Source of the DNA: a virus
Strand: one strand, 5' to 3'
Length of the DNA: 64,000 nucleotides
Virus genome (UHGV): UHGV-0054069
Positions 1-7,913 of the stretch are shown piece after piece. The notes under the pieces were generated by a model. The model was not told where the DNA came from and ran no database searches. It saw only the letters and a program-made list of their open reading frames with translations. A program made the position numbers and the translations under genes. Positions within the stretch are counted from its first letter, which is position 1, and each line of letters starts with the position of its first letter.

Positions 1-47
1 CCCCAGATAAAGAACTTTATTACTAACCTAAACTGGAGATTCAAAAA

Positions 48-305
48 ATGGCTACCATTAAAAACATCGTAATTACTGCAAAATCCCGTGATGATGCTCG
101 TGCAACTGCTAAAAAATTAAATGGTAAAGTGGTTGACAACGGAAAAGATTCTACTGTAAGATGGGGCGTAAAGACAGACAAAAAATTAACTCTTAAACAT
201 AGCTCTTACAATATGTTTAAAGGTGTAAAAACTATCGGTAACACTAACGTGTTTACAAAACAGGGTTACAAAATGCACTTAGCATTAATTGGCAATTTAA
301 TCTAA
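48..305 (+). CDS. hypothetical early protein
   Basis: ORF; conserved leader CCTAAACTGGAG at 27-38 with GGAG about 9 nt before ATG. Confidence 0.55.
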   Translation: MATIKNIVITAKSRDDARATAKKLNGKVVDNGKDSTVRWGVKTDKKLTLKHSSYNMFKGVKTIGNTNVFTKQGYKMHLALIGNLI

Positions 306-311
306 AAGTAC

Positions 312-340
312 TTTACATGGGGTTTATAAGTCGATAGTAT
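312..340 (+). promoter_or_regulatory. sigma70-like promoter (TTTACA-N17-TAGTAT)
   Basis: -35 at 312-317, -10 at 335-340, read directly; precedes leader of gene 392..904. Confidence 0.5.
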
Positions 341-391
341 AAGCCCCAGATAAAGAGCTTTACCAACAATCCTAAACTGGAGATTCAAAAA

Positions 392-904
392 ATGAAATCA
401 GTCGAAAGCACCTTTGAAGTTCAAAAAGAAAAATTTACTATCATCTTTGAAGCAATGAATGTTTATGAGCCTTCCCATTGTGTGGATAACTGGCAATTCA
501 CTGATGAGCATAAAGGAGGAGTTACAATCAAAGTTAAAAACTCAGAACGTAACGGCTACAAATATGCAATTCCTATGCACTATGCGCTTTCACAGCTTGC
601 CAGTGATTACGCAAAACAGGGAAGGGATAACCCATCATTAGCCGCTTACAAGAGCTTACAAGATGAACTAGAAAGGGATTTAGGGGCTAATAGCTACATT
701 CTATACGCCTCAGTAGTTGACGCTGAAGGCAACACGGTTTTAAATAGTTTTTCCCTTGCGTATGGTTTTGATTGGTGCTATCTTGACGGGGAAGATTTAG
801 ATTCACGCTTAAAAGAGGAAGTAAGCAATTCAGGTGCTGAAGAGGAAGTTTTAGAGCGCTTGGAAGATTTAAAAGATAGTGTGATGAATATCTTTAATAT
901 CTAA
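392..904 (+). CDS. hypothetical early protein
   Basis: ORF with conserved leader/RBS cassette (371-382). Confidence 0.6.
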   Translation: MKSVESTFEVQKEKFTIIFEAMNVYEPSHCVDNWQFTDEHKGGVTIKVKNSERNGYKYAIPMHYALSQLASDYAKQGRDNPSLAAYKSLQDELERDLGANSYILYASVVDAEGNTVLNSFSLAYGFDWCYLDGEDLDSRLKEEVSNSGAEEEVLERLEDLKDSVMNIFNI

Positions 905-910
905 AAGTAC

Positions 911-940
911 TTTACATGGGGGTTATCAAGTTGCTAAGAT
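911..940 (+). promoter_or_regulatory. sigma70-like promoter (TTTACA-N18-TAAGAT)
   Basis: hexamers read directly; followed by conserved leader. Confidence 0.45.
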
Positions 941-989
941 AGCCCCAGATAAAGAGCTTTACCAACAATCCTAAACTGGAGAATCTAAA

Positions 990-1280
990 ATGAAAATTCC
1001 TGCTAATGTACGCTCAAAGTTAAGCCAATTACTACAAAACATTTCTTTTGTAGAATCTCATAGACGTTCACAGGATGTTATAGAGTGGTATCATGGGAAG
1101 ATTAACAAGAAAGAAGTTTTAATCTGTATTTGGAACTTTCAAAAAGAACATGGCAAGCCATTGCTTCAGGTTGACATTTATGATAATACTAGCAAATCAG
1201 CAGTAAAATCAAAAGCTGATATGATTGATTCATATGAAATTAGTCACACTGGTAGATTATCACACGTTGGGAAGGTTTAA
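990..1280 (+). CDS. hypothetical early protein
   Basis: ORF with conserved leader (970-981). Confidence 0.55.
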   Translation: MKIPANVRSKLSQLLQNISFVESHRRSQDVIEWYHGKINKKEVLICIWNFQKEHGKPLLQVDIYDNTSKSAVKSKADMIDSYEISHTGRLSHVGKV

Positions 1281-1281
1281 A

Positions 1282-1608
1282 ATGTTACTTTCTGGTATCG
1301 CAATTCTGATTTCAATTGTGGCGCTATGTAAAGCTTATCAAGCCTCAGCATATGCAGATAAGGCCATCACAAGGAAAGTTAAAATAAACCTTGTAAGTAG
1401 CTTCTTAGAGCGTTTAAGCGTGGAACAATTACAACGTTTAGAGATGGGCTTCAGGTTTAAGGCAGACACTTATCAAATCAGTGATGTTTTATCCGGTAAC
1501 TTTGAGCTTGTTAATGATTACAATACGTTACTAAATGCTATTCAAGCTACTGATTTAAAAGAATATTATCCGGCTATTGCACAAGAAATTAATAAACGCA
1601 AAAAATAG
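1282..1608 (+). CDS. hypothetical small membrane protein
   Basis: start moved to in-frame ATG 1282 just after upstream stop, GGAAGG RBS; N-terminal hydrophobic segment LLSGIAILISIVAL. Confidence 0.45.
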   Translation: MLLSGIAILISIVALCKAYQASAYADKAITRKVKINLVSSFLERLSVEQLQRLEMGFRFKADTYQISDVLSGNFELVNDYNTLLNAIQATDLKEYYPAIAQEINKRKK

Positions 1609-1609
1609 C

Positions 1610-1638
1610 TTGCAAAGGCAAATCAAAACAAGTAAAGT
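1610..1638 (+). promoter_or_regulatory. sigma70-like promoter (TTGCAA-N17-TAAAGT)
   Basis: hexamers with 17 nt spacer; GC hairpin GGGGC..GCCCC in leader. Confidence 0.5.
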
Positions 1639-1690
1639 ACTCATCAACGGGGCAAGCAAGCCCCAACAATCCTAAACTGGAGAATCTAAG

Positions 1691-1963
1691 ATGTATACAA
1701 CTAATAATGGCAGAACTTTAAATGTAACTTTAAAGCACTATGTAGATGGTGTATTAAACTTTGAAGACTTGCAAGCAGAACAGCACTTGTTAAATTGGCA
1801 AGTAGCAGGATTACAAAAAACTGCCACCGGATATGGGAAGAAAATCCCTACATCGTGGAAAGTGCCCTATTTAGGTAAATTACGTAGAATTTATCAAGAT
1901 GTTTACAGCAATAGTGGTGTAAGTTACATTATTGTTAGCGGTAAAAAGTTACATCTTGCTTAA
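1691..1963 (+). CDS. hypothetical early protein
   Basis: ORF with conserved leader (1672-1683). Confidence 0.55.
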   Translation: MYTTNNGRTLNVTLKHYVDGVLNFEDLQAEQHLLNWQVAGLQKTATGYGKKIPTSWKVPYLGKLRRIYQDVYSNSGVSYIIVSGKKLHLA

Positions 1964-1971
1964 TAAAGTGC

Positions 1972-2000
1972 TTTACATGGGGTTTATAAGTCGATAGTAT
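1972..2000 (+). promoter_or_regulatory. sigma70-like promoter (TTTACA-N17-TAGTAT)
   Basis: near-identical copy of promoter at 312-340. Confidence 0.5.
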
Positions 2001-2050
2001 AAGCCCCAGATAAAGAACTTTATCACTAACCTAAACTGGAGATTCAAAAA

Positions 2051-2452
2051 ATGGCTACGAACAAAGATATAGCAGTACTGAAAGCACGTTTGACCGTTAA
2101 CCGTATTAATGCTATCACATCAACCGCACCAGATGAGGTTTTACATAACATTATCGGTAAAATTCAGGGTGTAATTTTAGACGTTGAAAACATCAGAGAT
2201 TCACTTGCAAATGTTGCACAGGGTGTTACACTTGACGGCGCACAATATGAAATGGCTGATATGCTTTCAAAGTCAAAAGTTCTTAATAAAGAATTAGACT
2301 TGAAAATGTTTCGATTTGCTATTAAAGTGTGGTTATCTGTTGAGTTTGATGCTAACTTTGCAATTGCTGATTTCTTTGCAACGTGGTTACAACGTAATTT
2401 AGAAAAGCAAGATTTTCAAGATATCTGCGATACAATTTACGCAGAACTTTAA
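2051..2452 (+). CDS. hypothetical early protein
   Basis: ORF with conserved leader (2029-2040). Confidence 0.6.
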   Translation: MATNKDIAVLKARLTVNRINAITSTAPDEVLHNIIGKIQGVILDVENIRDSLANVAQGVTLDGAQYEMADMLSKSKVLNKELDLKMFRFAIKVWLSVEFDANFAIADFFATWLQRNLEKQDFQDICDTIYAEL

Positions 2453-2459
2453 AAAACGT

Positions 2460-2488
2460 TTGACACTAATTTTTAGATAGATTAAAGT
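2460..2488 (+). promoter_or_regulatory. sigma70-like promoter (TTGACA-N17-TAAAGT)
   Basis: consensus -35, 17 nt spacer. Confidence 0.5.
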
Positions 2489-2543
2489 ACTCATCAACGG
2501 GGCAAGACAGAAGCCCCAACAATCCTAAACTGGAGATTCAAAA

Positions 2544-3101
2544 ATGAAATGCTTTCACGGAACTACTCAAGAAAATTTTGTAAACCTGCTGAGTGGTGGA
2601 GAAAAACCTTCAGGGGCTTGGAATTGCTCAGACAGTGACGGGTGTTTTTATGTTTACCCTGTTAGTAAGTTCTATGATGTAGAGGATATGGACGCAGAAC
2701 AAATCACTGAAGAGGGTATTAGAAACGCTATGGATAGCGCAAGTATCACAGCGGCTTTCCAGATGAAATCACAAAAAATAGTTATCTTGGAACTTGATAT
2801 TCCAGAAGATGAATTGCAAGATGACTGGAGCTGTGAGAATATGAAAGACGTTGCAAGCTTTACAGAACACTTTGATAAATCTTGGATTAAAAAGATTTAC
2901 ACAACTGATTTTAATGCTATGTATGCACCGTTTTTTGTACCTAACTTGAACAATAGAAATCTTGGCTATGTACCTGATGAATTACATAACATTGCTGTAA
3001 TGGTTCAACGTAGCGATGAGATGAGTAATGTTTATTGTGACATTTTCGAAAATATGCAATCTAATATCACAGAAAGCAATATAAACGACTTTACAGCATA
3101 A
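2544..3101 (+). CDS. hypothetical early protein with N-terminal HGT..GG motif (possible ADP-ribosyltransferase-like fold)
   Basis: ORF with conserved leader; N-terminus CFHGTTQENFVNLLSGG; function is inference only. Confidence 0.55.
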   Translation: MKCFHGTTQENFVNLLSGGEKPSGAWNCSDSDGCFYVYPVSKFYDVEDMDAEQITEEGIRNAMDSASITAAFQMKSQKIVILELDIPEDELQDDWSCENMKDVASFTEHFDKSWIKKIYTTDFNAMYAPFFVPNLNNRNLGYVPDELHNIAVMVQRSDEMSNVYCDIFENMQSNITESNINDFTA

Positions 3102-3127
3102 TCTATAGAATCTTACCAGTTAATTAA

Positions 3128-3147
3128 AAAAGCCCCGCACAGGGGCT
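3128..3147 (-). terminator. hairpin with U-run on minus strand (antisense terminator-like)
   Basis: AAGCCCCGCACAGGGGCTT preceded by AAAAAA on plus strand, i.e. hairpin+T-run on minus. Confidence 0.35.
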
Positions 3148-3164
3148 TACAAGAGGCTTAAAAC

Positions 3165-3401
3165 ATGTTAACAACAATCTATCTCATGCTTGCTGTATGC
3201 TCTGGGGCTAATGATTGCCATTATGGGGTTTTAGAATCCTTTGAAGGCACTAAACAAAATGCGGAAGAGGCTTGTAATATTGCTAGACAAGATTACCCCA
3301 AATCATCTAAAATGGGTTGCTACGTCTTACAAGGTGAAGACGAAAACACAGAATACTACGAAAATATTAATGAAGATGAATTTTTAGAGATTTACAAATA
3401 A
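3165..3401 (+). CDS. hypothetical small protein with N-terminal hydrophobic/signal-like segment
   Basis: ORF; AGAGG RBS; N-terminus MLTTIYLMLAVCSGA. Confidence 0.5.
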   Translation: MLTTIYLMLAVCSGANDCHYGVLESFEGTKQNAEEACNIARQDYPKSSKMGCYVLQGEDENTEYYENINEDEFLEIYK

Positions 3402-3406
3402 AGTAC

Positions 3407-3436
3407 TTTACATGGGGCTTAAAAGCTTGATACCAT
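3407..3436 (+). promoter_or_regulatory. sigma70-like promoter (TTTACA-N18-TACCAT)
   Basis: weaker -10; followed by conserved leader. Confidence 0.35.
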
Positions 3437-3477
3437 AAGCCCCAGATAAAGAGCTTTCCTAAACTGGAGTTTTCACA

Positions 3478-3624
3478 ATGTCAAATATAGTTGAAATGGT
3501 TTTTAATAATCCGGTATTCTCAGAGATGATTTTCTCGTTTATCATGATGTTACTTGTTAAAACCATGAAAAAAGCCGAAAAATTACACTCAAAGAAAAAA
3601 GCTATTGCAAACCGTTTTAAGTAA
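3478..3624 (+). CDS. small hydrophobic protein (48 aa), absent from ORF track
   Basis: ATG 3478 preceded by leader CCTAAACTGGAG (3458-3469); in-frame to TAA 3622-3624; MSNIVEMVFNNPVFSEMIFSFIMMLLVKTMKK... Confidence 0.4.
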   Translation: MSNIVEMVFNNPVFSEMIFSFIMMLLVKTMKKAEKLHSKKKAIANRFK

Positions 3625-3633
3625 AGATATAGT
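3605..3633 (+). promoter_or_regulatory. sigma70-like promoter (TTGCAA-N17-TATAGT)
   Basis: overlaps 3' end of small ORF 3478..3624. Confidence 0.5.
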
Positions 3634-3671
3634 ATCAATCAAGCCCACTTCCTAAACTGGAGAATCTGAAA

Positions 3672-4013
3672 ATGGCATACGTAACAATCATCACTGATAA
3701 AGAAAATTCCTCATGGTCTACACAAGTAAGCGATAGAATGTCGCCTATGCAATGCCTAAAATACTTTGAGCAATGGAACAAGGGGGAAGATGTAAGCCCT
3801 TTCCAAGTGATGCAAATTGTACACGTTGATAATGACGGTAACAAAACAACACTAAACAGCGAATACTATGCAACACGCTTTGAAACAAAAGCTAACATGA
3901 TGAAAGCATTACGTGAAAAAGGTTATAGTCACATAGCGGGGTTAATATGGAGTGACTTACTAAAATCACAGAGATTAACCTATGTCAAGACAGAAAAAAT
4001 CTTTATAAGCTAA
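3672..4013 (+). CDS. hypothetical early protein
   Basis: ORF with conserved leader (3645-3656). Confidence 0.6.
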   Translation: MAYVTIITDKENSSWSTQVSDRMSPMQCLKYFEQWNKGEDVSPFQVMQIVHVDNDGNKTTLNSEYYATRFETKANMMKALREKGYSHIAGLIWSDLLKSQRLTYVKTEKIFIS

Positions 4014-4141
4014 TCAATGACTTACAAAATTCTTTGAAAAAACTGTTGACAATACCCCTTGACATTGATAGATTTGTTCGAGGGGGTTTATCTAAAAGGG
4101 ATTCACTTAAAAGATTCTTTATAGATAAGCGTAAAAAGTAC

Positions 4142-4170
4142 TTGCAAAGGTCTAATCATATCTATATAGT
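4142..4170 (+). promoter_or_regulatory. sigma70-like promoter (TTGCAA-N17-TATAGT)
   Basis: hexamers read directly. Confidence 0.5.
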
Positions 4171-4209
4171 ATCTTCAAAAGGCAACTTCCTAAACTGGAG
4201 AATCACTAA

Positions 4210-4350
4210 ATGTTAGATATCATTAAAAACCCTATCCTTTGCGGTATGATTGTCTCTGTTGTGTTGCCATTAGCAATACTCATCATTGGTGAAATCTCAG
4301 ATAAACTTTTTGATAAAAAACTACTTGCAATACAGAATCAAAACAAGTAA
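4210..4350 (+). CDS. small hydrophobic protein (46 aa), absent from ORF track
   Basis: ATG 4210 after leader CCTAAACTGGAG (4189-4200); MLDIIKNPILCGMIVSVVLPLAILIIGEIS...; stop TAA 4348-4350. Confidence 0.4.
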   Translation: MLDIIKNPILCGMIVSVVLPLAILIIGEISDKLFDKKLLAIQNQNK

Positions 4351-4353
4351 AGT
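4325..4353 (+). promoter_or_regulatory. sigma70-like promoter (TTGCAA-N17-TAAAGT)
   Basis: -10 overlaps stop codon of ORF 4210..4350. Confidence 0.5.
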
Positions 4354-4415
4354 ATTTATCAACGGGGAGGGAGACTTCCCCACTAAAACAAAATTCCTAA
4401 ACTGGAGAATCTAGA

Positions 4416-4943
4416 ATGAATAAGTTCCAAGCAATTAATCATATCCGTTCCAATGCAGTAATGAGCAAGCCAGTAAAAGACACCTTCGAATTCCGCTGTA
4501 ATGATAAGTTGTTTGCAGTCATTACAAAAGGGGAAGATAAAAAGTATTATGTACATCGCCAAAACGTTAAGTTAGTAACAGCAGACAACTTTATGAAAGC
4601 TGTTGCAACAATCCTACCGGATTTTATGGAACTGGTAGCAGAACTTTGTGAACACTGCATCAAGTCATCAAAGGCAGAATTAAACCGCTTTAAAATGGCT
4701 TATGAGCGTTCTATCAAGTCCCATAACATGTATATCATGCCATTGGCTTTTGGTACTCAGGCAATGGGAACAGGTTGTCATCCTTTCCACCTTTACGATG
4801 TAGAAAGCATTTACCTTAGTGAGTCAAAAGATATTGATTTTAGTTTACAGTTAGGACAAGCATTAAATGATATGATTAAATTACACGAAAAATCCGTAAA
4901 AGATATGCAAAAAGAGCTTGACGAAATCATCGTAAATCTATAA
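4416..4943 (+). CDS. hypothetical early protein
   Basis: ORF with conserved leader (4396-4407). Confidence 0.6.
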   Translation: MNKFQAINHIRSNAVMSKPVKDTFEFRCNDKLFAVITKGEDKKYYVHRQNVKLVTADNFMKAVATILPDFMELVAELCEHCIKSSKAELNRFKMAYERSIKSHNMYIMPLAFGTQAMGTGCHPFHLYDVESIYLSESKDIDFSLQLGQALNDMIKLHEKSVKDMQKELDEIIVNL

Positions 4944-4946
4944 AGT
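4918..4946 (+). promoter_or_regulatory. sigma70-like promoter (TTGACG-N17-TAAAGT)
   Basis: within 3' end of upstream gene. Confidence 0.45.
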
Positions 4947-5003
4947 ACTTATCAACGGGGAGGGAATGACCTTCCCCAACAATCCTAAACTGGAGACTAG
5001 AAA

Positions 5004-5267
5004 ATGAATAATCAAGAAATCACTATCCTGTTACAAATCGGTACTGACAAAGAAGATATCCAACTTTGCAAACGTATTGAAAGTGATTGGTTCAACGGTG
5101 AAATCATCGCAGAATCTTATGAAGTAGTCGGATTCATGAATGGTGAAGTTGTAAGCCATTTCGGTTTAACTAAATCTGAAGCCGTTGCAAAGTATGACGT
5201 TTTATCTTGTGAGATTCTTACAAAATACAATGAAAAAAGACTTGCAACTTATGCAGCAATGAATTAA
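5004..5267 (+). CDS. hypothetical early protein
   Basis: ORF with conserved leader (4984-4995). Confidence 0.55.
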   Translation: MNNQEITILLQIGTDKEDIQLCKRIESDWFNGEIIAESYEVVGFMNGEVVSHFGLTKSEAVAKYDVLSCEILTKYNEKRLATYAAMN

Positions 5268-5270
5268 TAT
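5242..5270 (+). promoter_or_regulatory. sigma70-like promoter (TTGCAA-N17-TAATAT)
   Basis: hexamers read directly. Confidence 0.45.
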
Positions 5271-5333
5271 TACTTTCAACGGGGAGGGAGACTTCCCCAC
5301 TAAAACAAAATTCCTAAACTGGAGAATCTGAAA

Positions 5334-5585
5334 ATGGCTACTATCCGCGCAACTGTTAACAATTTTGGCTTCCATGTATTAGATGTTAAATTTGATATGG
5401 TTGGAACTGGTGATGCTTTCGGTATGATTGAAATGTGTCTGAAGGCAACTATTCAGGACTACAATCCATCGGAAACATTCTGGAAAGAAACTAAACAGGA
5501 AGTCTTAAAGGATGGTGTATCTTCTTACTATTGGGGTGATTCTCTTATCACGCTTTACTACCAAAAATTTGGTGTGATTAACTAA
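5334..5585 (+). CDS. hypothetical early protein
   Basis: ORF with conserved leader (5313-5324). Confidence 0.55.
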   Translation: MATIRATVNNFGFHVLDVKFDMVGTGDAFGMIEMCLKATIQDYNPSETFWKETKQEVLKDGVSSYYWGDSLITLYYQKFGVIN

Positions 5586-5626
5586 CAAGTCGCCGCAACG
5601 GGGCAAATAGCCCCAGACACCTTTAC

Positions 5627-5650
5627 AGCCCCTTAGATGGGGCTTTTTTA
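5627..5650 (+). terminator. rho-independent terminator
   Basis: AGCCCC-TTAGAT-GGGGCT followed by TTTTTT; ends the plus-strand early array. Confidence 0.7.
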
Positions 5651-5997
5651 CGTCTATGAGATAGAACTCTATACAGAACCCTTCCTAGAATCTTACCAGA
5701 CCTTTAGAACAATAACTCTATAGCTTACTCTATATCATCTTATCAAGTCAACTACAATATAAGCCCATAACCCGAAAGGGAAGGGCAATCCCTAAAACGC
5801 TCTATAACGCTCTATACGGGCTTATCATCTCATCTTAAGCAATCATATTAACCCACTCTAAAAAGCCCTTTATAGAGCTTTCTAGAGCCTTAAAAGAATC
5901 TTATAAGGGTATAAGCTTTATTATCTCGTTAGTATCTTGTGAATGGTTAAACAGGGGCTTGAAAGTTACTTAATAATGTGTTATGGGGAACTAAAAA

Positions 5998-6063
5998 GAG
6001 CTTAAAAGTAACGTAAAAGATGCTTAAAAGTAACGTAAAAGATGCTTAAAAGTAACGTAAAAG
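5998..6063. repeat. 3 tandem copies of 22-bp unit CTTAAAAGTAACGTAAAAGATG
   Basis: copies at 6001-6022, 6023-6044, 6045-6063 (third truncated). Confidence 0.85.
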
Positions 6064-6119
6064 TTAGCCCCCTTTACATTCTCTTAACAAAATCTTAACA
6101 AATGCAACATAGTTATGCT

Positions 6120-6600
6120 TATTAGAGACTTGTTAGCCCCTTGTTAAATCCTTGTTAGAGGTATGTTAAGAGCTTGTTAGACTCTTTGAAGTCCCTGTAT
6201 AAGCCCCTAGAAAGCCCTATAAAGAGCTATACAGGTAGTTGGGGTGTAGTTACTAGGGAGAACCTTAGAAGAGGCTATACAGAGCTACAGAGAGCTTTTA
6301 AGAGGGCTTTATAGAGAATCACTAAGAAGGGAAGGGAACTATAGACCAAGAGATAGTGACCATGTTAATAGTTTGTTAAAAAGGTTTAGAACTTGTTAGC
6401 ATCTTGTTAATTATCTTAACAAAATAACTCTTAAGATTTAACTATTTAGCAACTTATAAGCAACTTGTTAGACTCTTGTTAGTAATGTTACAGACTTGTT
6501 AAGCTCTTGTTAGTTCTGTTAAGAGACTGTTAAGGACTTTGAAGAGATGTTAAGAGCTTGAGAGAGTTGTTAAGAGATTGTTAATGATATTTTAAGATTT
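6120..6600. repeat. iteron-like arrays of CTTGTTAG / GTTAAG motifs at roughly helical spacing
   Basis: over 20 copies at about 10-12 bp spacing in two blocks (6130-6180, 6400-6600); no ORFs. Confidence 0.7.
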
Positions 6601-7189
6601 TGCAAAGGGGATGTTACAGGGCTGTTAAGGGCTACTAAGCAGATATACACCCTTTGTAGATATTTTTCAGATACTCCCAAGAACCTAAAAAGTGACCTAC
6701 CTAGTCTATTTTATAAAAATTTTATAGAACTGAATAACTATCTATACACTATCTTCTATAAAACAGGTAATAACAGGCTTATAAGATATCTTGTTAGTAA
6801 CGTGTTAGACCTTGTAGGATAAGCCTTTACAGGGAATACCTGTTTAGTGTTATATAACAGTCTATATAGAGGCTTAGTAATACCTAGTGATTCTGCTATA
6901 TAGGGTACTATCATTTACCTAGAGATTAAGATGGGTATAGGGGCTTCTAAGGGGGTAGAAAGAGGTTAGGAAGGTGATTGTATAGGGTTGATTAATGGTA
7001 GGCTTAGAAGGCTTTATAGAGGGATATATAGAGAGCACTATTTAGGGACTAAGATGCTATATAGATACTATATAATACTATATAGAGATGATGCTTAGAG
7101 AGGGTGTTTAGAAGGGTATAGATATTTTATCACATATCATGGTGACCCAAGATGAACGGAGTGAATCCCAAATTTTATAAAAATTAAAA

Positions 7190-7232
7190 AGCCCCTATGA
7201 GATAGATTCTATCGAATCCATTTTAAGGGGCT
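7190..7232 (-). terminator. candidate terminator (long-loop hairpin + T-run on minus strand)
   Basis: AGCCCCT..AGGGGCT with nested GATAGA/TCTATC hairpin; A-run on plus strand; just past stop of gene 7242..7913. Confidence 0.4.
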
Positions 7233-7241
7233 AAATATTAA

Positions 7242-7913
7242 TCAACACAAATTCTCTATGATTACTTGAATAGCTTGTTTTGTGGTATGGAAGAAGTGTG
7301 TAAAACCAGTACTGCTCTCTGTAACTTGAATCATAATCTGTGAACCCTTAACCGGATAAGTTTGTAAGCGGTAATGATTACCATTGATTACAATAGAGCC
7401 ACCTTCACCAATATGATTCAAATGTGTGATATCAACAAATTCTTCTTTGCCTGTGACCCTGATACAAACACCTTTGTTCACTCGTGAAGGGTTAATATCT
7501 TCCATAAATAGCATTATCTGTCCACCAAGAGACATCATAGAGACTTCTTTACGGTTCTGCTGTTTAACATACATCTCAAGTTTCTTCAAAGTATCTTCAT
7601 AGAACGGATAAGACTTCTTGACAAAGATACCTTCAAGTGGCTCTTTACCTGAGTCTTCTCGTTCCATCTTAAGTCGATTAACAAGTAATTCTAAAGACCA
7701 CTTCTCACTTTCATCAAGATATGTATTGATATCATCTAGACTCAGTACCAGATACTTTCTTTCAAGTTCAAACTTTTTCATCTCTATCAAATCCTTAAAA
7801 CATTTCTTAGTAATTGCTTCCCATTCTTCGGAGTTCTTCCGCTTCCTCTTCAGATGGGGAACCATATCTGTTAAGTTCTTCCAACTCTTCTTCAGTAGGT
7901 GTACCATAATCAC
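7242..7913 (-). CDS. hypothetical protein
   Basis: long ORF in minus-strand block. Confidence 0.55.
   Translation of the reverse strand: MIMVHLLKKSWKNLTDMVPHLKRKRKNSEEWEAITKKCFKDLIEMKKFELERKYLVLSLDDINTYLDESEKWSLELLVNRLKMEREDSGKEPLEGIFVKKSYPFYEDTLKKLEMYVKQQNRKEVSMMSLGGQIMLFMEDINPSRVNKGVCIRVTGKEEFVDITHLNHIGEGGSIVINGNHYRLQTYPVKGSQIMIQVTESSTGFTHFFHTTKQAIQVIIENLC

Follow-up and report, generated by a model that had tools for sequence, protein, structure and literature searches.

In T4-like myoviruses, promoter-early stem-loop (PeSL) elements form mobile cassettes, with stem-loops between the -35 and -10 elements and crossovers between -10 and the Shine–Dalgarno (SD) sequence or the ATG (Arbiol et al. 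2010, PMC2839356; Comeau et al. 2014, PMC4122927). Cluster K mycobacteriophages carry start-associated sequences (SAS; Pope et al. 2011, PMC3203893), the function of which has been open since 2011 and was untested as of November 2025 (PMC12699233). We compared both with an array of small early genes at the start of a 64,000-nt stretch of the viral genome UHGV-0054069 (the window: the whole stretch of DNA analysed); most genes of the array are preceded by a short conserved box, CCTAAACTGGAG. Repeats of this array are on record. The same repeat, 26 bp long and of unknown function, was reported for phage Mordin, the record of which annotates repeat_regions, and its authors already compared the repeat with SAS (2015, PMC4611695). 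For Felix O1, direct repeats of 57 bp and 39 bp were listed uninterpreted (PMC3185647); these correspond to the type A promoter-hairpin and a type B promoter described below. In the literature searched, no paper that mentions PeSLs ties them to Felix O1-like phages, and work on Felixounavirus comparative genomics and PhageMaP (Bas63) contained nothing specific on the cassettes. Motif and concept are both published; what is new is the link between them and the junctions at nucleotide level. Our best explanation, which as a whole we consider rather probable, is that window positions 1–5650 are the distal portion of an array of early-gene cassettes, roughly 15 in number and each self-contained, that all Felix O1-like myoviruses carry. 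The units are probably mobile cassettes of the PeSL type with a SAS-like box, which would act as a translation-initiation module on the mRNA and as a recombination linker on the DNA.

A megablast search with window positions 1–6000 returned 252 phage records, every one of them Felix O1-like (Ounavirinae). The top relatives were Shigella phage SFPB (95.7 %, Mooglevirus), Citrobacter phages KMM4 and Moogle, and Escherichia phage SUSP2. By this comparison the window is a Felix O1-like myovirus of the Ounavirinae, genus Mooglevirus. In annotated relatives the array lies 3′ of rIIA, rIIB, a 182 amino acid (aa) secreted vs.1-like protein, the polynucleotide kinase gene (pnk), the spanins and a macro-domain protein, and its end is marked by an intrinsic terminator, beyond which ~1.6 kb are non-coding. 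The window begins within the array, and two further cassettes are present upstream in relatives. The array is closed by a stem plus T-run at 5627–5652, the sole canonical terminator on the + strand, which is annotated at the same place in Moogle and Mordin.

The 13-mer CCTAAACTGGAGA was present in 11 exact copies and in one copy with a single mismatch (3458, reading GGAGT), all on the + strand, with starts at 27, 371, 970, 1671, 2030, 2524, 3458, 3651, 4189, 4396, 4984 and 5313. Its 12-nt core is invariant in 12 of 12 copies and ends in GGAG, the SD, from which the remaining part of the box, CCUAAACU, is to be distinguished. Among the 12 copies, the information content falls off within 3–4 nt on either side of the core. 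At up to two mismatches the window held 14 matches, compared with a mean of 1.9±1.5 in shuffles, none of which reached 14; the remaining matches in the window require two mismatches and are chance-like. The gap between the 13-mer and the ATG is 7–8 nt, placing the ATG 8–9 nt past GGAG, and the distance between the box and the -10 varies from 17 to 43 nt. The constant distance on one side and the variable distance on the other suggest that the box acts at the level of RNA or translation. It precedes 12 of the 14 + strand open reading frames (ORFs) in 48–5585 and none of the 58 other gene starts in the window, where the SDs are diverse. The intergenic regions of the array measure 47–196 nt. In relatives the box occurs in 10–15 copies, confined to this array and to the coding strand.

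An earlier note on this DNA, made from the letters alone, had counted 13 copies, one before every small gene; we found 12, and the ORFs at 1282–1608 and 3165–3401 are without one. The spacing of 6–9 nt to the ATG given there agrees with our measurement, and its observation that conservation reaches 8 nt upstream of GGAG was confirmed. The same holds for its remark that this conservation exceeds what ribosome binding needs: past GGAG, the box is not complementary to E. coli 16S rRNA, there being no complementary 7-mer or longer match, and the duplex energy between leader and 16S rRNA was weaker than in shuffles. Extended pairing with 16S rRNA in the manner of an epsilon-like enhancer was rejected on these two results, and ribosome pairing therefore does not explain the box.

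Comparison of orthologous cassettes revealed strong constraint. Relative to Moogle, Mordin and SUSP2, the 12 nt of the box are 100 % identical, while the identity is 82–92 % in the 14 nt 5′ of the box, 59–66 % at codon position 3 and 87–93 % at codon position 2. Constraint on the box thus exceeds that on second codon positions. Relative to Felixounavirus the box is 94–96 % identical and codon position 3 is 51 % identical. Over 29 Ounavirinae loci, CCTAAACTGGAG was found in 171 copies, CCTTAAACTAGGAG in 58 and CCTAAATTGGAG in 24; the Erwinia phages carry CCTTATAAAGGAA and CCTTAAACAGGAA, and CCTTAYAAAGGAA is a further variant beside the first two. Within Felixounavirus, the box variant can differ between orthologues, as it does for gene L of VSe11 and ekra, which shows ongoing exchange between the variants. 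An IMG/VR scan with CAGATAAAGAGCTTT gave mainly single chance matches, so that only multi-match contigs of ~81–90 kb were used; the 19-nt extended box occurred only in IMG/VR contigs of 62–91 kb. The box is shown to be tied to the start codon and not to the promoter, to be under purifying selection and to be specific to this array and to the Ounavirinae.

We compared the order of cassettes, defined by ORF family, in seven genomes, and synteny blocks between the window and nine relatives. Gene content among the seven genomes differs by whole cassettes: N and A are missing in Moogle, G and I are missing in some genomes, K is variable, and O, P, Q and R are inserted or substituted. Internal synteny-block ends are intergenic in 36 of 39 cases (21 % expected) and lie within 15 nt of a box in 29 of 39 (8.7 % expected), and neighbouring blocks overlap on the box. 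Three chimeric cassettes provide stronger evidence than these block-end statistics. The window cassette between K and L equals the K–O cassette of SFPB up to the box and the O–L cassette of SFPB from the box on. That between E and F corresponds 5′ of the box to E–Q of SUSP2 and E–R of PC79-13, and 3′ of it to Q–F and R–F. The cassette between I and J matches I–P of ESh22 before the box and P–J of ESh22 from the box on. In all three events the two flanking cassettes differ in type and have only 14–17 nt around the box in common. The mobile unit therefore consists of the ATG, the ORF, the next promoter with its hairpin, and the box. In these genome alignments, the box is shown to be the nucleotide-level junction of cassette insertion, deletion and replacement among relatives. 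In Mordin, a half cassette (AAGCCCCAGATAAAGAGCTTTACCAA) is joined directly to a complete type A cassette at 2140–2250, upstream of Mordin_124. By analogy with the '1/2 PeSLs' of the PeSL papers, this is a scar of the type that would be expected from recombination between cassettes.

Candidate -35 and -10 hexamers lie ahead of 11 of the 12 boxes, the remaining cassette being cut by the window edge. The earlier note had assigned sigma70-like promoters with 17-nt spacers to most of the genes, which holds for 9 of 12, with 18-nt spacers in two more. It had also noticed GC-rich hairpins in some leaders; five such leader hairpins are indeed present, and it had missed four others that cover the promoter spacer and the -10. 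The hairpins of these nine cassettes have predicted energies of -8 to -14 kcal/mol. The cassettes of the array, all on the + strand, fall into three types. Type A consists of TTTACA, a GGGG...CCCC hairpin enclosing the -10, AGATAAAGAGCTTTACC and the box. Type B consists of TTGCAA or TTGACA, N17 and TAAAGT, a -10 that often contains the stop codon of the preceding ORF, followed by a GC hairpin at the leader 5′ end and the box. Type C consists of TTGCAA-N17-TATAGT, a short leader without hairpin, and the box.

The edge-cut cassette 0 (1–47) retains the 3′ arm of a type A hairpin (CCCC, 1–4), a AGATAAAGAACTTTAT leader and the box (27–38). Four complete cassettes are of type A. Cassette 1 (306–391) has -35 TTTACA at 312–317, -10 TAGTAT at 335–340 (17-nt spacer), a hairpin over spacer and -10 at 319–347 and the box at 371–382. 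Cassette 2 (905–989) has TTTACA at 911–916, TAAGAT at 935–940 (18-nt spacer), the hairpin at 918–946 and the box at 970–981. In cassette 4 (1964–2050) the -35 is at 1972–1977, -10 TAGTAT at 1995–2000, the hairpin at 1979–2007, an inverted repeat GATAAAG-AA-CTTTATC at 2009–2024 and the box at 2030–2041. Cassette 6 (3402–3477), the leader of which is 9 nt shorter, has its -35 at 3407–3412, -10 TACCAT at 3431–3436, the hairpin at 3414–3443 and the box at 3458–3469, followed by T and not A. Identical 29-nt hairpins occur twice in the window. The six-pair core stem of type A is kept in 51 of 52 distinct sequences from four genera; one pair has undergone a compensatory double change from G-C to U-A in the Erwinia lineage, and the fifth pair is U-G, C-G or U-A. 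The -10 inside the hairpin reads TAnnnT in 52 of 52 distinct type A cassettes.

Where transcription is predicted to start in type A cassettes, the -10 is directly followed by an inverted repeat, GATAAAG-NN-CTTTA(T/C)C (349–364, 2009–2024 and other type A cassettes; 9040–9060 in phiEa104). Its centre varies (GAGC, GAGA, GAAC), and the repeat is conserved between phages of Salmonella, E. coli and Shigella and those of Erwinia. Possible roles are a hairpin at the RNA 5′ end or an operator to which a dimeric DNA-binding protein would bind.

Type B comprises five cassettes. Cassette 3 (1609–1690) has TTGCAA at 1610–1615, TAAAGT at 1633–1638, a GGGGC..GCCCC leader hairpin at 1649–1664 and the box at 1671–1682. 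Cassette 5 (2453–2543), the junction of the Q and R insertions in SUSP2 and PC79-13, has TTGACA at 2460–2465, TAAAGT at 2483–2488, the leader hairpin at 2499–2517 and the box at 2524–2535. Cassette 9 (4325–4415), the junction of the P insertion in ESh22, has TTGCAA at 4325–4330 within ORF I, TAAAGT holding the ORF I stop at 4348–4353, a leader hairpin with a GAGA loop at 4364–4381 and the box at 4396–4407. In cassette 10 (4918–5003), TTGACG is at 4918–4923, TAAAGT with the ORF J stop at 4941–4946, the leader hairpin at 4957–4977 and the box at 4984–4995. Cassette 11 (5242–5333), the junction of the O insertion in SFPB, has TTGCAA at 5242–5247, TAATAT with the ORF K stop at 5265–5270, the leader hairpin at 5281–5298 and the box at 5313–5324. 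In the last three (4325–4353, 4918–4946 and 5242–5270), the -35 lies within the upstream ORF and the -10 (TAAAGT or TAATAT) includes the TAA stop of that ORF. The upstream protein would therefore end in residues encoded by the predicted promoter (..LLAIQNQNK* in the case of ORF I), and part of the 3′ end of each such ORF would be cassette sequence.

The two type C cassettes are cassette 7 (3605–3671; TTGCAA at 3605–3610 within the upstream ORF, TATAGT at 3628–3633, box at 3651–3662, no GC hairpin) and cassette 8 (4142–4209; TTGCAA at 4142–4147, TATAGT at 4165–4170, box at 4189–4200). Cassette 8 ends an unusually long intergenic region of 196 nt (4014–4209) that contains an additional promoter-like TTGACA-N17-TAGATT (4046–4074) and a CCCC...GGGGG inverted repeat of opposite polarity; ESh22 annotates tiny ORFs at the matching region. 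It may be a degraded cassette that remained after a deletion.

The array contains 14 ORFs of 46–185 aa, none of which belongs to a Pfam family; ten were scanned against PHROGs and matched only families of unknown function. Codon position 3 is far less conserved than positions 1 and 2, which indicates that these ORFs are real genes. The ORFs behind the boxes are not related to one another. Those led by a box are A (48–305, 85 aa, phrog_5089), B (392–904, 170 aa, phrog_4190), C (990–1280, 96 aa), D (1691–1963, 90 aa), E (2051–2452, 133 aa), F (2544–3101, 185 aa), G (3478–3624, 48 aa; missing in Moogle), H (3672–4013, 113 aa), I (4210–4350, 46 aa; missing in Moogle, SUSP2 and PC79-13), J (4416–4943, 175 aa), K (5004–5267, 87 aa; varying in presence among relatives and replaced by ORF O in ESh22) and the final array gene L (5334–5585, 83 aa). 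Of the two ORFs without a box, C′ (1282–1608, 108 aa) starts 1 nt past the stop codon of ORF C and is therefore probably translationally coupled to it. The other, F′ (3165–3401, 78 aa), has an AAGAGG SD and a hairpin of its own at 3130–3148. The region upstream of F′ (3102–3164) contains TCTATAGAATCTTACCAG and this hairpin, AAGCCCCGCACAGGGGCTT, which is terminator-like on the minus strand; a near copy of the sequence ahead of F′, CTAGAATCTTACCAG, recurs at 5683–5699 just past the array terminator. No Rfam family was detected in 1–7300, either at the gathering threshold or at E≤1. In Felix O1, reverse transcription PCR showed that ORFs 13, 16, 20, 21 and 22, several of which are array ORFs, peak at 5 min (PMC3185647).

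Folding with ViennaRNA predicts that the box forms a small hairpin with the SD in its 3′ arm. The structure (U)UCC-UAAACU-GGA(G) is the local minimum-free-energy fold in 8 of 11 predicted leaders, and the SD guanosines have a probability of being unpaired of ~0.01–0.1 in the predicted leader folds. Every box variant of the subfamily is predicted to fold alike (-0.9 to -3.6 kcal/mol). The commonest alternative variant differs by one added U and one added A, which form one extra base pair, and single-insertion intermediates are absent from all 229 copies. Predicted structure was stronger in the array leaders than in 52 other ribosome-binding regions of the phage (-2.6 versus -0.8 kcal/mol). We consider the mini-hairpin a plausible structure on the basis of these models.

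We propose that each unit would combine a host sigma-70-type promoter (TTTACA or TTGCAA, N17–18, TAnnnT), a GC-rich hairpin over the spacer and -10 (type A) or at the leader 5′ end (type B), the invariant box with its GGAG as SD, and a small ORF. On the mRNA, the box would serve as a standardised translation-initiation module. It may fold as a weak hairpin of 3–4 bp, (U)CC-UAAACU-GG(A), with the SD in the 3′ arm, and this mini-hairpin could insulate initiation from the downstream ORF. On the DNA, the 12–17 nt of common identity would act as the linker through which recombination at short homology shuffles the genes.

Several observations weigh against this proposal. An invariant 8-nt stretch with sharp edges exceeds the usual need of ribosome binding or homologous recombination and argues for a sequence-specific partner, which the proposal does not provide. 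In the mini-hairpin, no true covariation is seen: the core pairs never vary, and the flanking U-A pair, present in about three-quarters of the copies, varies uncompensated; the paired U and A insertion may have been a single event. Wherever the box is the last conserved element, a block end is to be expected at it in any case, and the block-end statistics do not by themselves prove that crossover took place at the box. The promoters are putative, being consensus matches only. A permissive promoter scan found 35 in comparison with 26.7±4.8 in shuffles, that is, no significant overall enrichment, and the promoter argument therefore rests on position and on conservation across genera. Finally, none of the cassette hairpins in the window is followed by a U-tract, and the terminator function of PeSLs can thus not be assumed here.

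The sharp edges of the 12 invariant nucleotides, constraint above that on codon position 2 and the lack of 16S complementarity past GGAG would also fit a box that is the target of a dedicated trans-acting RNA-binding protein or endoribonuclease, of phage or host origin, that switches the array on or off coordinately after transcription. Such a factor would resemble T4 RegB or RegA, or the coat proteins of RNA phages that bind operator hairpins, with an unrelated protein in the role; a conserved UAAAYU loop on a short SD-containing stem does resemble an operator hairpin, and two co-existing box variants differ by just one added U-A pair. We regard this alternative, which is compatible with and does not exclude the cassette model, as somewhat unlikely. 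The RegB precedent, cited by the earlier note for its shared control site, is not supported. The RegB/S1 site is a single-stranded 11-nt sequence, GGAGRAYARAA, which carries information on the 3′ but not on the 5′ side of GGAG (Durand et al. 2006, PMC1702504). The 3′ contexts GGAGAAUCUAA and GGAGAUUCAAA of the array match 9 of these 11 positions; against this, conservation in the array is strong 5′ of GGAG and the GG is predicted to be paired. Searches with T4 RegB and RegA (tblastn, E<1) found nothing in the window, in SFPB 33–72 kb or in other loci of relatives, which together cover one whole Mooglevirus genome. Among 50,697 phage records, 1,138 matched T4 RegB, the matches listed being T4-like. 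The only RegB annotation in the subfamily, 'predicted T4 endoribonuclease RegB' for gp007 of Erwinia phage phiEa104 (2983–3495), was rejected. The protein is a homologue of T4 Vs.1: gp007 and its homologues in SFPB, Moogle and VSe11 (one of these at locus L001, 3456–4004) carry a signal peptide, match the SLT transglycosylase domain weakly and are 33 % identical to Vs.1 (E 2e-14), whereas neither T4 RegB nor the solved RegB structure is similar to them. Since Vs.1 adjoins regB in T4, the label is likely an annotation error carried over from the neighbouring T4 gene. No candidate protein or antisense RNA was found either; antisense partners of the box in the window were limited to chance matches with two mismatches within coding regions.

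Specific recognition could also take place on DNA. The box would then be primarily a site for integron- or homing-like, site-specific recombination of cassettes, with its ribosome-binding position secondary. Three independent indel junctions inside the box, despite only 14–17 nt common to the flanking cassettes, the sharp conservation boundaries, and genes for HNH and GIY-YIG endonucleases in these phages would suit such a site. However, the annotations of the relatives include no integrase or recombinase, the PeSL crossovers of T4-like phages occur at similarly short homologies without a known dedicated enzyme, and the box is in constant phase to the ATG, contains the SD and occurs on the coding strand only, as expected of an RNA signal; we consider this alternative improbable. 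In its broadest form, the recognition idea would make the box a UAAAYU-loop mini-hairpin bound by a phage or host factor, with the array as one post-transcriptional regulon, or with a factor catalysing integron-like DNA exchange in a virulent phage. We consider this unlikely; if true, it would provide the first function for a SAS-like element, in a tractable phage of E. coli, Shigella or Salmonella. A functionless box, left as the residue of recent tandem duplication of one promoter-leader, would account for the few clearly related cassette types and for the identical hairpins found twice in the window. It is contradicted by the identity of the box across genera in which synonymous sites are near 60 % identical; the flanks of the box have diverged and the box has not, and the ORFs behind the boxes are mutually unrelated. 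We judge this explanation extremely improbable.

Three other regions of the window were recorded. Between the array terminator and a leftward gene block, 1.65 kb (5590–7240) contain no ORFs. They are dense in iterons with an 11-bp period (CTTGTTA at 6118–6200 and 6380–6640; TAAAAG-NNNNN at 5992–6063) and also in CTATA(G/C)AG-type repeats; in phage ekra, repeat_regions are annotated at this place. In its sequence, this region looks like a replication origin or a packaging or terminal region. UAB_Phi87, with 608-bp terminal repeats (PMC4837284), was considered for placing the array beside a physical genome end; its record begins in the tRNA region and was uninformative, and the idea was dropped. 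ARAGORN called 24 clustered tRNA genes in 17514–22600. Rfam adds a tRNA-like element at 17598–17669 that ARAGORN did not call, and some ARAGORN calls, such as 17758–17834, are not in Rfam. Just upstream of the cluster, 15864–17348 encodes a 494-aa protein with DUF2828 (E 1e-25) and DUF7788 (E 1e-43). It occupies the same position as gp130 of Bas63, which according to the PhageMaP preprint is Ro60-like and counters the Ppl defence; the match is positional only.

The cassette model would extend the PeSL principle, in which small self-expressing cassettes use regulatory DNA as the linker for shuffling, from T4-like phages to the Felix O1 subfamily, and would pin the exchange point to a 12–17 nt element that doubles as ribosome-binding region. 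Variable early genes in such arrays are the usual site of host-takeover and anti-defence functions, and knowledge of the exchange unit would therefore aid mining and engineering. Felix O1-like phages are in use for typing, biocontrol and therapy. A SAS-analogous element in enterobacterial phages would make SAS function easy to test.

Among the known systems, the RegB/S1 sites share with the array the GGAG SD of early genes followed by an A-rich spacer, at 9 of 11 positions. They differ from it in that no RegB homologue was found in the searches described above, and in that the information of the T4 site is 3′ and single-stranded, whereas here it is 5′ and predicted to be partly paired. The resemblance to SAS is closer. 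Both are short, asymmetric conserved motifs of ~13 nt that contain the SD core, lie a few nucleotides before the ATG and have one orientation. SAS are present in 11–19 copies per genome, exclusively at non-structural genes with large intergenic gaps, compared with 12 copies in the window and 10–15 in relatives, and in both cases pairing with 16S rRNA does not account for the conserved positions. However, the consensus sequences GGGATAGGAGCCC and CCTAAACTGGAG are unrelated, the hosts belong to different phyla, and SAS are found in temperate siphoviruses, whereas the box is found in virulent myoviruses. The SD lies between GGG and CCC in SAS and would form the 3′ arm of the mini-hairpin here, and the box is in addition a recombination junction. 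Judged by its sequence, the box is an analogue of SAS and not a member.

The likeness to PeSLs concerns the whole cassette. In both systems an intergenic unit is repeated throughout a hyperplastic region of small ORFans; it has an AT-rich 5′ stretch that includes the upstream stop codon, and SD and ATG at the 3′ end. The early sigma-70-like promoter would be TTTACA-N17/18-TAnnnT here, compared with TTTACW-N17-TAYWAT in T4 and PST. A GGGG...CCCC stem-loop lies between -35 and -10 or over the -10, as in type A at 319–347, 918–946, 1979–2007 and 3414–3443, and the units delimit indels and replacements among close relatives, the crossovers falling between -10 and SD or ATG. Unlike PeSLs, which belong to the Straboviridae, these cassettes belong to the Ounavirinae and include two more architectures, with the hairpin in the leader downstream of the -10 or with none. 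Their hairpins are without U-tract, and an invariant 12-nt box beside the SD forms the exchange junction.

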